Assembly: GCF_016903815.1 (NCBI RefSeq)
Contig: NZ_CP069973.1
Source of the DNA: Escherichia coli
GTDB lineage: Bacteria > Pseudomonadota > Gammaproteobacteria > Enterobacterales > Enterobacteriaceae
Direction: 5' to 3' (one strand)
Length of the DNA: 64,000 bases
The notes beneath the pieces were generated by a model, which saw nothing but the letters and a program-made list of their open reading frames with translations, ran no database searches and was not told where the DNA came from. Each line of letters begins with the position of its first letter. Within the stretch, counting starts at the first letter, position 1. The position numbers were made by a program, and so were the translations under genes. Of the stretch, positions 4,425 to 49,557 are shown piece by piece.

Positions 4425-6326
4425 TTAATGGTCCTCCGCTGCGGCAACCGCTGGATTTTCCGCAGGCAGATCGGTGTTGTTATCACCCAGCATAATGTGG
4501 TCGAGGATCTGGCGCATCAGCGTACCAACCGCCGGACCCGCACCGCCGTTCTCCAGAATCATGGCGACAGCGACTTGCGGATTGTTGTATGGCGCAAAGG
4601 CGGTCATCAGTTTGTGGTCACGTAAACGCTCGGCAATTTTGTGCGCATTATAGGTTTCGTTCGCTTTCAGACCGAAGACCTGAGCGGTACCGGATTTCGC
4701 CGCAATTTTGTACGGTGCGCTGGCAAAGTATTTATGCGCCGTACCGTTAGGGCGGTTAGCAACACCGTACATACCGTCTTTCGCCAGCTCCCAGTAACCG
4801 GAATGAATATCGCCGACGGGCGGTTCATGCGGTTGTACCCATGGCACCTGTTTGCCGTCTTCGGCGGTGCTCATCAGCAAATGCGGAACCTTCACGATAC
4901 CGTCATTAATCAGGATCATCAGTGCCTTACTCATCTGGATTGGGGTCGCTGTCCAGTAACCCTGACCGATACCAACCGGAATGGTGTCACCCTGATACCA
5001 CGGTTTTTTAAAGCGTTTCTGTTTCCATTCGCGGGTAGGCATGTTGCCGGAACGTTCTTCCGCCAGGTCGATACCGGTGTAATGACCATAACCGAATTTA
5101 CCCATCCATTCGGAGAGGCGATCGATTCCCATATCGTAGGCCACCTGATAGAAGAAGGTATCCGCAGATTCTTCCAGCGATCTTGTGACATTCAGACGCC
5201 CGTGGCCCCATTTTTTCCAGTCACGATAACGTTTTTCCGAACCTGGCAGTTGCCACCAGCCTGGGTCAAACAGCGTCGTATTGCGCGTGATCACTCCGGC
5301 GCTCAATGCCGAAACCGCCACATAGGGTTTAACTGTAGACGCGGGAGGATAAACCCCCTGTGTAGCGCGGTTCACCAGCGGTGTATTCGGGTCGTTCAGC
5401 AAGGCGGAATAATCTTTGCTGGAGATACCGTCAACAAACAGGTTTGGGTCATAACTAGGCGTGGAAACCAGCGCCAGCACCCCACCTGTACGCGGATCGG
5501 TGACTACCACCGCTGCGCGGCTACCCGCCAGCAGCGTTTCAATATATTGCTGGAGTTTGAGATCCAGCGTCAGGTAAATATCGTGTCCGGCTTGCGGTGG
5601 GACTTCTTTTAACTGGCGGATAACACGCCCACGGTTGTTAACTTCAACCTCTTCATAACCGGTCTGACCGTGCAGCACGTCTTCATAGTAACGCTCAATG
5701 CCCAGCTTACCGATATCATGCGTTGCCGCATAGTTGGCCAGTTTGCCGTCATTATTCAGGCGTTCGACGTCTTTATCGTTGATTTTCGACACATAGCCGA
5801 TGACGTGGGTCAACGCCGAACCGTAAGGATAGTAACGACGTTTATAGCCTTTAACTTCAACACCCGGAAAACGGTACTGATTGACGGCAAAGCGAGCTAC
5901 TTGTACTTCGGTCAGGTTAGTTTTCACCGGAATGGAGGTGAAACGGTGTGAACGTGCGCGCTCTTTTCGGAATGCAGCAATATCGTCATCGGTCAGATCA
6001 ACCACGCTGCGCAAAGCGTCCAGCGTTTGCTGCACGTTATCGACTTTCTCCGGCATCATTTCTATCTGGTAGATAGTGCGGTTGAGGGCCAGAGGGATAC
6101 CGTTACGGTCGTAGATAATGCCGCGGCTGGGCGCGATAGGCACCAGCTTAATGCGGTTTTCATTAGAGCGGGTCTGGTAGTCGGTAAAGCGAACAATTTG
6201 CAGATTATACAGGTTGGCGATAAGCACGCCGGTCAGCAGCAAAATCCCCAAAAAGGCGACCAGCGCCCGGCGCACAAACAGCGCGGACTCTGCCGTATAG
6301 TCGCGAAAAGAGTTCTGTAGTTTCAT
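4425..6326 (-). CDS. mrdA: Peptidoglycan D,D-transpeptidase PBP2 (633 aa)
   Basis: 633 aa with N-terminal TM segment and transpeptidase STVK-type motif; synteny. Confidence 0.9.
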
Positions 6327-44676: not shown

Positions 44677-45996
44677 TTAACCGTGTTTATTTTTCAGTTC
44701 AAAGCGTGGTGAGACCAGACCATACAGTGTCCAACCGAGGAAGGTCACGATGGAACCGTATAGCATGGCTTCTTCCCCGGATGAGTACAGCGCATAAAAG
44801 CTGTACATCGCGCCAACAAAAGCAACAAAGTTTGCAACTTTCGCTTTTGAGGGGGGCACATTAGCGACCTTCTGAATAATGACTAATGCCGCCATTGACA
44901 GAATATACGGAATGATATTGGTCACCACGGCCAGGTTAACCAGCACGTTGAACTGACTGTTTAGCGACGGGCTAATCGTCATCAGCGCCAACCCGCTCTG
45001 GATAATCACAATGGTCAACATTCCCTGCACCGGTGCATCCACTTTGGTTACACGGGAGAAAATTTTAGGGAAGTAGCCTTCATCAGATGAAGATTTAAAC
45101 ACCTGGGCAATGGTGAACTGCCAGCCAAGCAGCGAACCGCAGCAGGACATCACCATCAGCGCCATAATGACTTTACCCACTTCTGGCGTGAACATCTGTG
45201 CGAAGGCCAGGCCAAATGGTGCCGTTGAATTTGCCAGCTCCATATTAGGCACAATCCCTGCAATCACGTTGGTGGAGACGATATAAATCACCGCCGCACC
45301 TAACGTACCGCCGAGTACCGCGATTGGCACATTACGTTCCGGGTTTTCCACTACATCAGTATTCGCACACGCAGACTCCAGACCAAGAAAAGCCCACAGC
45401 GTCATAGCGATGGAAGAACCTACCGCACTGAAGAACGGTGCATGATGCGGATTCCAGGAATCAACGTAAAGCGTCGGGCTAAACCAGAACCAGCCGATAA
45501 CGCACAGGCCTACCACCGGAATAATGACCCCCCACACGGTAATGCTACTGATTTGCCCGGTAATGCGCGCACCACCAAAGTTAGCCACGGTACAAATCCA
45601 CAGCACCCCGATGGTCGCAAGACCAATCTGCACTGGCGACAAACTCGCGCCGAGCAGTTCGGTGCCGTAACCAACCGCCGAAATAGCAATCGCGACGTTA
45701 GCAATTAGCAGTGAGACGCCGTAGGTATAGTTCGCCATAAAGTTCCCGGATTTACCGAAAGCATACTCCGCATAACCGCCCATACCGCCTGATTTACGGC
45801 TGAACATACCGCATTTTGCGAATGCCCATGCCAGTGCCATTGAGCCTACGGCTGTCACCAGCCAGGAAATAATTGAGATTGTCCCGACTTCGGCAAGCTT
45901 TGTCGGCAGCATGATGATACCGGAGCCCATCATGTTGACCATCGTCAGTATGGTTAACTGAACGACGCCCATTTTGTTCGATTTAGCCTGACTCAT
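44677..45996 (-). CDS. potE: Putrescine–ornithine antiporter PotE (439 aa)
   Basis: APC-family permease; stop/start overlap with speF. Confidence 0.92.
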   Translation of the reverse strand: MSQAKSNKMGVVQLTILTMVNMMGSGIIMLPTKLAEVGTISIISWLVTAVGSMALAWAFAKCGMFSRKSGGMGGYAEYAFGKSGNFMANYTYGVSLLIANVAIAISAVGYGTELLGASLSPVQIGLATIGVLWICTVANFGGARITGQISSITVWGVIIPVVGLCVIGWFWFSPTLYVDSWNPHHAPFFSAVGSSIAMTLWAFLGLESACANTDVVENPERNVPIAVLGGTLGAAVIYIVSTNVIAGIVPNMELANSTAPFGLAFAQMFTPEVGKVIMALMVMSCCGSLLGWQFTIAQVFKSSSDEGYFPKIFSRVTKVDAPVQGMLTIVIIQSGLALMTISPSLNSQFNVLVNLAVVTNIIPYILSMAALVIIQKVANVPPSKAKVANFVAFVGAMYSFYALYSSGEEAMLYGSIVTFLGWTLYGLVSPRFELKNKHG

Positions 45997-48191
45997 AATT
46001 TTTCCCCTTTCAACAGGGTGCTTTGCGCATCACGAGGCTTGATGACATAGCACCAAACTTGCTTACGACCATCATGTTCTTCGATATAGACACCCTGCAG
46101 CTCCGGTGCAAAACCTGGCAGCAGGTTGATCCCTTCTTCCAGAGCGCTGAAGTAACGCAAAACAGCACCACCCCAGATTTCACCCGGAACAACACACAGC
46201 ACACCCGGAGGATAAGGAAGCGCACCTTCGGCAGCGATACGGCCTTCTGCATCCGGCAGACGAACCAGCTCCACTTCACCGCGTAAATAGGCGTAGTTAG
46301 CTTCTTGCGGATTCATGCTGACGCGTGGGAAGTGTTCCTTACGGAACATCTCTTTTTGCAGTTGTTTCACGTTGTGGCGGGCATACAAATCATGCATTTC
46401 CTGGCACAACTGACGAAGGGTATAACCGGCGTAGCGCTCTTCATGCTGTTTGTAGATGGAAGGTAGCACTTCCGCCAGCGGCGCATCAGATTCCAGCAGT
46501 TTTTCGAAGCGTACCAGCAGGGCAACAAGTTGCTGAAGTTTGGCCATATCCTCCGCCGGAGTCAGCAGGAAGAGGATGGAGTTAAGATCGCATTTTTCCG
46601 GCACTACGCCATTTTCGCGCAGGAAGTTAGCAAGAATCGTCGCGGGTACACCGAATGTTTCATATTCGCCGTTACGTGCATCAATACCTGGGGTTGTCAG
46701 CAACAGTTTGCAAGGATCGACAAAGTATTGATTCTCTGCATAGCCTTCAAAAGAATGCCAGTGTTCCCCTGGTACAAACTGGAAGAAGCGCAGATCAACC
46801 GCAATTTGCGCTGTTTCATACGACTGCCAGGGTTTACCATCCACCAGTTCAGGTACGAACGGACGAATATGCTGACAGTTATCGAGGATCAGTTTGCGGG
46901 CATTAATGCCATTTACCACACAATCCATCCACATATTACGACCGCTGACACCTTCATGCATTTTGGCGTTGATATCCAGTGCGGCAAACAGCGGATAGAA
47001 CGGGCTGGTGGAGGCGTGCATCATAAAGGCGTTGTTCATGCGTTTGTGCGGTACATAACGCTGTTGCCCTTTGATGTGGCTGTCTTTTTTATGGATTTGT
47101 GAAGTTTGAGAAAAACCAGCCTGCTGTTTATGTACGGATTGCGTAACCAGAATACCCGGATCGTTCTCATTAAGATCCAGCAACAGCGGCGAACAGTCAG
47201 CCATCATCGGGATAAATTGCTCATAGCCGACCCATGCGGAGTCAAACAGAATGTAGTCACACAGATGACCAATTTTATCCACCACCTGGCGGGCGTTATA
47301 AATCGTACCGTCGTAGGTGCCTAACTGAATCACAGCGAGGCGGAAAGGACGAGCCTCTTTTGCCCGCTGCGGTGCGACTTCCGCGATCAGCTCACGCAGG
47401 TAACTTTCTTCAAAACAATGCGCATCAATGCCACCGATAAAGCCATACGGGTTACGTGCCGTTTCCAGATAAACCGGTGTTGCACCAGCCTGTAGCAACG
47501 CTCCGTGGTGGTTAGATTTGTGGTTATTGCGATCAAACAGCACCAGATCACCCGGTGTTAGCAGGGCGTTTAAAACCACTTTGTTAGAAGATGAAGTGCC
47601 ATTTAGAACGAAGTATGTTTTATCGGCATTAAACACTTTTGCCGCATGTTGCTGTGCAATGCATGGCGCGCCTTCGTGAATCAGCAGATCGCCCATTGCC
47701 ACATCCGCGTTGCATAAGTCGGAACGGAACAGCGTTTCTCCGAAGTACTCCACGAACTGATTCCCTGCCGGATGACGACGGAAAAACTCACCTCCCTGAT
47801 GACCCGGGCAGTCAAAAGCGCTATTGCCCTGATTGACATAATCGACCAGTGCGCGGAAGAAGGGCGGGCGCAGTTGCGTTTCATAATGGCTAGCAGCGGT
47901 TTCTAACTGACGTCCATAAAACTCTTTCCGTGATTCGCAATGCTCGAAGACACCAGAAATACGTGGCAGATATTCTGCTGGTACACGTTCTTCATTTGCC
48001 GTTGCAATAAAAACAGGAATGCCATAGCCAGTAGCGTCTATTTCATCGAGTTTTCCACGTTCAACATCATTGACTGATAAAATAATGGCGGCAACGTCAA
48101 TATAATTACTTTCGTCAATATTCACGCATGCACGATGAGTGGAAAAACAATCCGGGCAAGAACGGCTAACGGCAATTTTTAATTCTGACAT
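45993..48191 (-). CDS. speF: Inducible ornithine decarboxylase SpeF (start MSELK at 48191 or MNKMSELK at 48200)
   Basis: Fold-III PLP decarboxylase; PLP-lysine region (SVHKQQAGFSQTSQIHKKD). Confidence 0.92.
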   Translation of the reverse strand: MSELKIAVSRSCPDCFSTHRACVNIDESNYIDVAAIILSVNDVERGKLDEIDATGYGIPVFIATANEERVPAEYLPRISGVFEHCESRKEFYGRQLETAASHYETQLRPPFFRALVDYVNQGNSAFDCPGHQGGEFFRRHPAGNQFVEYFGETLFRSDLCNADVAMGDLLIHEGAPCIAQQHAAKVFNADKTYFVLNGTSSSNKVVLNALLTPGDLVLFDRNNHKSNHHGALLQAGATPVYLETARNPYGFIGGIDAHCFEESYLRELIAEVAPQRAKEARPFRLAVIQLGTYDGTIYNARQVVDKIGHLCDYILFDSAWVGYEQFIPMMADCSPLLLDLNENDPGILVTQSVHKQQAGFSQTSQIHKKDSHIKGQQRYVPHKRMNNAFMMHASTSPFYPLFAALDINAKMHEGVSGRNMWMDCVVNGINARKLILDNCQHIRPFVPELVDGKPWQSYETAQIAVDLRFFQFVPGEHWHSFEGYAENQYFVDPCKLLLTTPGIDARNGEYETFGVPATILANFLRENGVVPEKCDLNSILFLLTPAEDMAKLQQLVALLVRFEKLLESDAPLAEVLPSIYKQHEERYAGYTLRQLCQEMHDLYARHNVKQLQKEMFRKEHFPRVSMNPQEANYAYLRGEVELVRLPDAEGRIAAEGALPYPPGVLCVVPGEIWGGAVLRYFSALEEGINLLPGFAPELQGVYIEEHDGRKQVWCYVIKPRDAQSTLLKGEKL

Positions 48192-48500
48192 TTTGTTCAT
48201 CTCTTTATTTCAGGTAATAGCAGGTCCTCAATTTCTCAAAGGAGAAATTGATCACGCCGGAAAAAAGCAAAACCCCACCGCTGATAAATAAATCAGTAGT
48301 TTGCTTTTTGTAGATGCAATAACCCAGACCAGCCCGGTAACTGGCTATACTCGTCATACCTCAAGTTGCAAGTGCTGCGACTCGAATTATTTAGAGTTTA
48401 AAAGGGTTAGCAGTATATGAGCACCGAGGAATACAGGTATTAACCTGTAATGCTTAAAGTCAGGGAGACCTGTACGTTGGGGTGCCCTTTAGTCAGAAGA

Positions 48501-48605
48501 CTAGCGGGCATTAAAGAAATGAAAGTCAAAACTATTACGATGGGCAAACTTCATGATATGGGTTGTCCGCCTTATATGAGGCATTAAGCGGTTATTATTT
48601 TCCAT
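48501..48605 (-). CDS. speFL: speF leader arrest peptide SpeFL (34 aa; MENNNRLMPHIRRTTHIMKFAHRNSFDFHFFNAR)
   Basis: Manual minus-strand translation; matches the ornithine-sensing leader peptide as recalled; sits about 300 nt upstream of speF. Confidence 0.75.
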   Translation of the reverse strand: MENNNRLMPHIRRTTHIMKFAHRNSFDFHFFNAR

Positions 48606-48879
48606 TTACCTTTACCTCTTGCTGTGTCAGTTGAAGGTAGAGTTATTCTATCCATGAAATGGCTATAATCTGTGAAGAAGATCAACAAAAAACGATCATA
48701 CCCCAGATAATAAATCATTAATTATGAATATTGCCATATTAGATGCTGTTTTGTTACTTAAATGTTGTAATTTTGTGTTTTATATTTGCGTTAAGAAATT
48801 AAACCTGCCAAATAATAATATTTGGAGCAGGTTTAATAATAAATTAATCACTATTAAAGCGAATTTATTGAATAACAAT

Positions 48880-49557
48880 TCAAAGCATAAACCGATACCC
48901 AATACCGGTTTCAGTAATGAAATGGCGGGGGCGAGCGGGATCCTGTTCCAGTTTTTGTCGCAGATGTCCCATATAAATACGCAAATAATGACTGTGTTCG
49001 ACCGCGTTTGGCCCCCACACCTGGTTAAGGAGCTGGCGCTGGGTGAGCACTTTTCCGGCATTGTTGAGCAGCACCGCCAGCAGGCGAAACTCAATTGGTG
49101 TGAGATGCACCTCTTCCTCACCGCGATGGATCACGCGGGCGGCTAAATCGACGGTAACATCGGAAAATTTCACCAGCGGATCGGGCGCAGCGGTGGCGGA
49201 GTGGCGACGTAAAGCGACGCGCAGACGGGCCTGCAATTCGCCAATGCCAAACGGCTTACTCAGGTAATCATCCGCTCCGGCATCCAGCGCGGCGATTTTG
49301 TCGCTCTCTTCGCTGCGTGCGGAAAGCACAATCACTGGCACTGCGCTCCACTGGCGCAGGTCGCGGATAAACTCAATCCCATCACCATCGGGCAGGCCGA
49401 GATCGAGAATAATCAAATCTGGCTTACGGGTAGCCGCTTCCAGCAAGCCGCGTTGCAGCGTTTCGGCCTCATAGACGCGCATCCCGTCGCCCTCCAGCGC
49501 CGTGCGCAGAAAGCGACGAATAGCCTGTTCATCTTCAACAATCAGAACGTTTGTCAC
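48880..49557 (-). CDS. kdpE: Response regulator KdpE (OmpR family, 225 aa)
   Basis: Receiver domain (Asp in LIILDLGLPDGDG) plus winged-helix output domain. Confidence 0.93.
   Translation of the reverse strand: MTNVLIVEDEQAIRRFLRTALEGDGMRVYEAETLQRGLLEAATRKPDLIILDLGLPDGDGIEFIRDLRQWSAVPVIVLSARSEESDKIAALDAGADDYLSKPFGIGELQARLRVALRRHSATAAPDPLVKFSDVTVDLAARVIHRGEEEVHLTPIEFRLLAVLLNNAGKVLTQRQLLNQVWGPNAVEHSHYLRIYMGHLRQKLEQDPARPRHFITETGIGYRFML

Follow-up and report, generated by a model that had tools for sequence, protein, structure and literature searches.

What occupies the short, strongly AT-rich stretch of DNA that separates kdpE, of the potassium-pump (kdp) operon, from speFL, the leader gene of the acid-inducible ornithine decarboxylase operon, in Escherichia coli? 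We addressed this question in a 64-kb stretch of E. coli DNA (hereafter the window), in which the relevant genes and the edge of the stretch are arranged as follows.

44677-45996, minus strand: potE.
45993-48191, minus strand: speF.
48501-48605, minus strand: speFL, leader peptide gene encoding 34 aa (MENNNRLMPHIRRTTHIMKFAHRNSFDFHFFNAR), which starts at 48605 and forms the left flank of the spacer.
48880-49557, minus strand: kdpE, with kdpD next.
48880-48882, minus strand: kdpE stop codon TGA, the right edge of the spacer and of a block that varies between strains.

The spacer (48606-48879) comprised 274 bp, running precisely from the kdpE stop codon to the speFL start codon, and the region was 100% identical to that of E. 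coli strain 7/2. It is an ordinary control region of an already understood kind, a terminator together with a promoter, and the interpretation given in an earlier note made from the sequence is supported. We consider it probable that the spacer is composite, comprising the end of the kdp transcript and the control region and core promoter of speFL-speF-potE, between two operons on the same strand.

The GC content of the spacer was 27.4%, compared with 52% for the window, and equally AT-rich segments of 274 bp made up 0.09% of the total. The minimum of the 64 kb was located in the spacer, in agreement with the earlier note's description of a stretch more AT-rich than its flanks. The lowest value over 150 bp was 21% GC (start 48707), and the distal 180 bp (48700-48879) had 23% GC; speF and potE had normal GC contents. 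A collection of species-representative genomes was scanned with SpeF, which yielded 80 loci. kdpE was positioned directly upstream of speFL in 28 species, including members of Escherichia, Citrobacter, Enterobacter, Kluyvera, Trabulsiella, Superficieibacter, Pluralibacter and others, and in most of these the spacer was 257-281 bp long with a GC content of 27-33%, indicating that length and AT-richness are conserved properties of the region. Judged from these comparisons, the extreme AT-richness appears to be a conserved trait of the control region and gives no sign of foreign DNA. From composition alone, it is plausible that H-NS binding would be favoured here, an effect that upstream activators could counteract.

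The part of the spacer nearer to kdpE contains a stable RNA structure on the kdpE strand.

48798-48837, minus strand: bulged stem-loop (about 17 bp, bulge of 2 nt) that may act on the kdp transcript as an intrinsic terminator or stabilise its 3' end, identified by folding against shuffled sequences.
48788-48797, minus strand: U-rich, interrupted tail 3' of the stem, which together with the last stem bases reads ..GGUUUAAUUUCUUAAC, from direct reading of the sequence.

The arms pair perfectly over 11 nt (48798-48808 and 48827-48837) and are extended by an inner stem; the structure spans 42-81 nt past the kdpE stop, with ..GGUUUAAUUUCUU behind it. The folding energy of the RNA was -17.3 kcal/mol, compared with -5.4 ± 2.3 kcal/mol for shuffled sequences (z = -5.1), and none of 200 shuffles folded as well. 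The tail (UUUAAUUUCUU) has 7 U in 11 positions, and its interruption accounts for the failure of a consensus terminator scan to call the hairpin. The K-12 allele carries an unrelated canonical terminator hairpin at the same place (AAAGCCGUA-loop-UACGGCUUUUUAUCUU, z -5.6), and most of 30 Enterobacteriaceae spacers contain a stable hairpin of unrelated sequence at a similar distance past the kdpE stop. Conservation of position without conservation of sequence is the pattern of a terminator or of a hairpin that stabilises a 3' end. The hairpin described in the earlier note was thus present, and its proposed role as a candidate kdpE terminator is consistent with its position and strand, the U-rich tail and the other hairpins found there in relatives and in K-12. 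It shares with known intrinsic terminators a stable stem-loop close behind the final gene of an operon and a U-rich tail; it departs from them in its bulged stem, A/U-rich at the base, and in its interrupted U-tract. It is best read as a candidate terminator of the kdp operon with an imperfect U-tract. Transcription of kdpFABCDE would reach the stem-loop (48798-48837) and its U-rich tail, where the structure would most likely terminate the kdp transcript or stabilise its 3' end, insulating the downstream operon. In E. coli isolate 11PC, a 45-bp deletion between TTAATTT microhomologies removes the whole hairpin, indicating that it is dispensable, at least in that isolate.

The proximal end of the spacer carries the elements expected of a promoter for the downstream operon.

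48645-48650, minus strand: -10 hexamer TAGAAT (5/6 match to TATAAT), assigned from its near-invariance in 30 species and its distance to the ATG.
48638, minus strand: predicted transcription start, 7 nt past the -10, from Salmonella primer extension and the alignment.
48606-48638, minus strand: predicted speFL 5' UTR of 33 nt, with the Shine-Dalgarno sequence AAAGG at 48609-48613.

In the species alignment, the hexamer (TAGAAT or TAAAAT) was located within a near-invariant GGATA(A/G)AAT. The same operon, downstream of kdpE, has been studied in Salmonella Typhimurium as orf34-speF (Ben-Zvi et al. 2019, PMC6386406) and in K-12 as speFL (Herrero del Valle et al., bioRxiv 10.1101/604074). Both resemble the window in having a 5' UTR of about 31-33 nt before a 34-codon leader ORF and a conserved -10; the studies dissected the leader peptide, Rho and mRNA decay, and not upstream promoter elements. 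In Salmonella, primer extension revealed a single start for orf34 (speFL), with the AUG at +32, and deletion of the promoter abolished expression, while a fusion carrying the promoter from -201 to +14 showed no response to arginine or ornithine (PMC6386406). In Citrobacter-like sequences, 37 nt separate the -10 from the ATG, an exact fit to the Salmonella start; the window has 2 extra nt just before the ATG, which would place +1 at approximately 48638 and give a 33-nt 5' UTR. The near-invariant -10 and this agreement with Salmonella support the earlier note's placing of the speF promoter (strictly, that of speFL-speF-potE) in the spacer, with a start predicted near 48638 in the window strain. 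No -35 hexamer close to TTGACA was found, since candidates 16-18 bp from the -10 matched at no more than 2/6 positions and a TTCACA is located 20 bp away, and a sigma-70 consensus scan called no minus-strand promoter in the spacer. RNA polymerase would use the -10 TAGAAT (48645-48650) and start at about 48638, with no usable -35.

The 5' end of the predicted speFL mRNA may itself be structured. Its terminal ACCUU (48634-48638) pairs with a Shine-Dalgarno-like GAGGU (48614-48618), and a 5'-terminal hairpin of 4-7 bp was found in nearly all of 38 species, with stems that differ in sequence (among them CUUUCA/UGAAAG, UUUCC/GGAAA and CCUUU/AAAGG) and are weak, mostly -3 to -6 kcal/mol with a mean z of -1.2. 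As their loop lengths differ and MAFFT misaligns the arms, these hairpins were folded sequence by sequence. The structure could stabilise the mRNA or tune translation of speFL.

Directly upstream, in the place of the -35, the alignment revealed a conserved interrupted palindrome.

48671-48686, no strand assigned: CRP/FNR-family site TGTGAAGAAGATCAAC, 8/10 match to TGTGA-N6-TCACA, centred at about -40.5, assigned from its fixed position and conservation.

At class II CRP promoters, TGTGA-N6-TCACA centred at -41.5 replaces the -35. The site in the spacer resembles these in its half-site spacing, in its fixed position replacing the -35, in its centre near -40.5 and in the adjoining upstream T-rich tract; it differs in its 8/10 core, in its FNR-like left half TTGA and in that the centre is counted from a predicted start. 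In 29 of 30 species, exactly 28 bp separated the centre from the -10 downstream of it (-40.5 from the predicted +1). The core match rose to 9/10 in Enterobacter, Superficieibacter, Cedecea and Serratia, Hafnia and Buttiauxella also have GTGA-N6-TCAC, and the site was invariant among E. coli alleles. Matches with two mismatches numbered 19 in the 64-kb window against 26.5 expected, so that a single match is not above chance; what speaks for a CRP-family activator is not the match score but the unvarying position of the site, its conservation and the lack of a -35. An FNR site at the same place (TTGAT-N4-TTCAC, 8/10) was considered and rejected, because CRP accounts better than FNR for the two halves: on the right TCAC(A) never varies, and on the left many genera have GTGA. 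The literature searched contained no paper linking speF to CRP and no direct transcriptional activator of speFL-speF-potE, and speF is not mentioned in the main text and text supplements of an E. coli K-12 FNR ChIP study. The promoter would most likely be activator-dependent (class II) through the palindrome near -40.5, and a CRP-family protein is predicted to bind there. The region also contains two GATC (Dam) sites 14 bp apart (TGATC-N9-TGATC; 48693-48698 and 48680-48685) that are near-invariant across Enterobacteriaceae, one of which falls inside the CRP-like site.

Further upstream, the alignment revealed an array of direct repeats and four short conserved blocks.

48752-48779, plus strand: three direct repeats, TGTTAC, TGTTG and TGTGT, at 11-bp spacing, about -114 to -141, assigned from conservation of phase.
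48743-48752, minus strand: conserved block AAAACAGCAT, adjoining the repeat array, from the alignment.
48722-48731, minus strand: conserved block ATATTCATAA, consensus ATATGCATAA, from the alignment.
48705-48714, minus strand: conserved block TTTATTATCT, consensus TAATTATTTC, from the alignment.
48693-48698, minus strand: conserved TGATCG, part of a TGATC-N9-TGATC whose other copy is the left half of the CRP-like site, from the alignment.

The phase of the repeats was tested on ungapped sequences anchored on the -10 alone and read on the strand opposite speFL. TGT was present at -114, -125 and -136 in 80%, 84% and 72% of 25 species, respectively, compared with an average of 4.5% elsewhere. Repeats of this kind are recognised by ArcA, and similar ones by PhoP, KdpE and OmpR. 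Within the array, GTTACTTAAATGTTG (48753-48767) agrees with the classical ArcA box GTTAATTAAATGTTA at 13/15 positions, which alone is not significant. Park et al. 2013 (PMC3798270) describe ArcA sites as typically made up of three to five repeats spaced by 11 bp; the window array is similar in its three TGTT(A/G) repeats and exact 11-bp spacing, and dissimilar in lying far upstream (-114 to -141) and pointing away from the promoter. speF-potE is activated by ArcA in Haemophilus influenzae (PMC1974803), and speF expression falls in an arcA mutant of Shewanella (PMC2262068). OmpR has been reported as a repressor of speF in K-12, where the 384-bp EMSA probe "upstream of speF" may miss the present promoter (PMC5686162). 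Because the main text and text supplements of the E. coli ArcA ChIP paper (PMC3798270) do not mention speF, and because the PhoP, KdpE and OmpR repeats are so similar, we assigned the array to the OmpR/PhoB family: it would most likely bind a response regulator of that family, with ArcA as the best guess.

No obvious binding factor was recognised for the blocks AAAACAGCAT, ATATTCATAA and TTTATTATCT or for TGATCG, and an IHF site around TGATCG was rejected, as inspection by eye gave no good match to the consensus. A lack of conservation beyond the known speF promoter was part of what the earlier note would have counted against its reading; several blocks upstream of the promoter are in fact kept across genera.

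The distal end of the spacer, where it meets kdpE, is marked by a second palindrome.

48869-48882, no strand assigned: perfect palindrome TGAATTGTTATTCA (TGAAT-N4-ATTCA) with an ARG-box-like core, about -231 to -244, overlapping the kdpE stop.

Exact TGAAT-N4-ATTCA occurs once in the 64 kb, against 0.08 occurrences expected. In 24 of the 28 kdpE-adjacent species, both half-sites were exact and the centre was freely variable, and two more species had one mismatch. In Phytobacter, genes for an alcohol dehydrogenase and a TetR regulator are inserted after kdpE, and Citrobacter sp. 18056 has, in the place of kdpE, genes for a DcuC-family carrier and an ArgR-family regulator; the exact palindrome is kept in both, at the same distance from speFL. 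The palindrome was absent after kdpE wherever the speFL spacer is missing. As it travels with speFL and is absent without the spacer, it belongs to the speFL region and not to kdpE. The ArgR-family gene of Citrobacter sp. 18056 (1847-2329 of the locus; PF01316 and PF02863) ends 36 nt before the palindrome.

The ARG box consensus is wnTGAATwwwwATTCAnw. The palindrome resembles it in its perfect TGAAT-N4-ATTCA core, in the link of arginine and ornithine to the physiology of the operon and in the ArgR-family gene adjoining it in one Citrobacter; it differs in being a single box about 235 bp upstream of the predicted start, and the K-12 copy is degenerate. Two adjacent boxes 2-3 bp apart over the promoter are the norm for ArgR operators (PMC4381063). 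No second ARG box was found beside the palindrome, the next 18 bp matching at only 5/10 positions and being poorly conserved, and a second box there or a proximal ARG pair at 48705-48731 was rejected as too weak (5-6/10 by eye). Since there is no conserved second box and the palindrome is located about 235 bp upstream, ArgR is only a candidate. The Salmonella fusion that showed no arginine response began at -201 and would not have contained the palindrome (PMC6386406). The palindrome would mark the distal edge of the control region and, less certainly, serve as an ArgR-like site.

The spacer of the window was compared with those of 5426 complete E. coli genomes, which fell into two main types. 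A window-type spacer was present in 3340 genomes at 80-100% identity and a K-12-type spacer in 1765, nearly all at an identity of at least 99%. Identity over the speFL region was bimodal among 5043 genomes, with 3334 at no less than 95% and 1707 at 80-90%. The difference extends beyond the spacer: between 47677, a point some 515 bp into speF, and the kdpE stop, the window and K-12 shared 42-89% identity, compared with 92-100% on both sides. The mosaic block (47677-48879) takes in this first part of speF (~515 bp) as well as the leader, speFL and the spacer. The replaced 1.2-kb block was found in approximately 31% of E. coli genomes, K-12 included. The 5' end of the window speF was 89% identical to that of E. 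albertii, as was the remainder of the gene, whereas the identity of the K-12 block was only 82-83% with the window, E. albertii or strain E69 and 75-77% with Citrobacter. As the window allele tracks E. albertii and the K-12 block is about equally distant from all sampled species, the window allele is native, and the 1.2 kb of the K-12 allele look imported from a lineage that has not been sampled.

K-12 has retained the -10, the CRP-like site and two of the TGT repeats; missing from its allele are the third repeat, the proximal conserved blocks, the perfect palindrome and 51 nt of the speFL-speF leader. Compared with the window, which represents the majority allele, K-12 has a spacer of 233 bp instead of 274 bp, a different hairpin and a leader shorter by those 51 nt. 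The corresponding 51-bp segment of the window (48353-48403) contains a small hairpin, AGTTGCAAGTGCTGCGACT, called on the plus strand by the terminator scan, and a sub-threshold Rfam match to isrH (17 bits against a cut-off of 45), which lies outside the spacer and is probably due to chance. Two further irregularities were seen in single strains. An IS1A element is located inside the K-12-type spacer of strain G8, in which kdpD has an internal stop, and in strain W444 (NZ_CP122507.1) the feature under the spacer match is annotated as "TonB-dependent receptor" and not as the usual hypothetical protein, which may reflect a rearrangement or an annotation oddity.

Taking the conserved sites and the two alleles together, we tentatively suggest that the spacer is a conserved multi-input control region of the acid/anaerobic ornithine decarboxylase operon, in which a class II CRP-family site is combined with an ArcA-type array and an ARG-box-like palindrome, and that in laboratory K-12 and roughly a third of E. 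coli it has been replaced by 1.2 kb of imported DNA. We give this reading less than an even chance.

The speFL-speF-potE operon was missing from 383 of the 5426 complete genomes (~7%); strains 2021CK-01784, GDSC2227PM and MS20675 have pgm, with or without ybfP, followed by REP elements abutting kdpE. The kdpE stop in these three strains is TAG instead of TGA. Such absences raise the question of whether the AT-rich stretch mainly marks, as scar or boundary, a speF-potE islet that was acquired horizontally, is silenced by H-NS and, apart from the core promoter, has no role that depends on its sequence. That the variable block has its right edge precisely at the kdpE stop, and the 23% GC over 180 bp, point in the same direction; however, speF and potE have normal GC contents, and the kdpE-speFL adjacency, the spacer length, the AT-richness and the blocks are conserved in many genera, indicating that the arrangement is ancestral and that its absence in some strains represents loss. 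One 9/10 match to TCGATAAATT, which we take to be the high-affinity motif of H-NS, was found at 48862-48871, but the number of matches to this motif was not above chance (8 found, 4.5 expected), and H-NS occupancy would also be compatible with a terminator and promoter. A mobile-element origin was considered and rejected: there was no phage match, and the plasmid matches were confined to mislabelled, chromosome-sized records. We therefore regard an acquired islet as unlikely.

A second alternative to the composite control region is that, beyond the core promoter, the spacer is neutral filler drifting towards AT and that the apparent motifs are alignment artefacts of low-complexity DNA. The distal 180 bp are essentially unalignable between the two E. 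coli alleles, mean column conservation over 48790-48860 was only 0.43-0.55, and single motif matches are individually not significant. Drift of this kind would not be expected to maintain the TGT phase, which was obtained without gaps from the -10 and holds in 72-84% of species against a background of 4.5%, nor the palindrome, whose half-sites are exact in 24 of 28 kdpE-adjacent species as well as in Phytobacter and Citrobacter sp. 18056 while the centre is free, and which survives replacement of the upstream gene. The spacer length also stays within about 25 bp across genera. We consider neutral filler improbable, somewhat more so than an acquired islet.

Finally, the open reading frames that extend into the spacer were evaluated.

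48584-48718, minus strand: 44-aa "hypothetical protein" annotated by PGAP, judged spurious.
48724-49146, plus strand: 140-aa ORF antisense to kdpE, judged to be no gene.

The 44-aa ORF is annotated by PGAP in thousands of genomes, but stop codons break its frame in K-12 and in almost every other genus, and its own start, at about -80, lies upstream of the predicted transcription start. The antisense ORF was present as the earlier note had listed it. The spacer sequence that makes up its first third is not conserved, and in K-12 the equivalent ORF has 74 aa and starts inside kdpE. Neither ORF matched Pfam, and a coding role was rejected for both; they are not conserved and are probably not genes. 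The earlier note's reserve about the antisense ORF was accordingly well placed, and the conservation of small ORFs that it suggested examining was not found. K-12 also has an 85-aa ORF antisense to speFL (5584-5841, plus strand in the K-12 locus extract), presumably the withdrawn gene model ybfK, which is no longer in the current annotation. That the spacer encodes a product of its own, whether the 44-aa protein, the 140-aa antisense ORF or a small RNA that ends at the hairpin, such as a product of the kdpE 3' UTR, is very improbable: although the stable hairpin could form the 3' end of a small RNA and two weak promoter-like matches occur on the plus strand, these are fewer than the 2.8 expected by chance, the hairpin sequence is not conserved between species, an Rfam search of 47900-49200 gave nothing above threshold, and the two frames are broken or begin at an unconserved start.

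The speFL-speF-potE operon serves as a model of leader peptides that sense ligands, and it has a part in acid and polyamine physiology. To this the present analysis adds a map of conserved candidate regulator sites, in which the conserved blocks are specific and testable, and the placing of K-12 as a minority, imported version. The dimorphism of the alleles is a warning against taking K-12 as typical of most E. coli at the speFL promoter; if the multi-input reading is true, the regulation of speF derived from K-12 may not hold for most E. coli.
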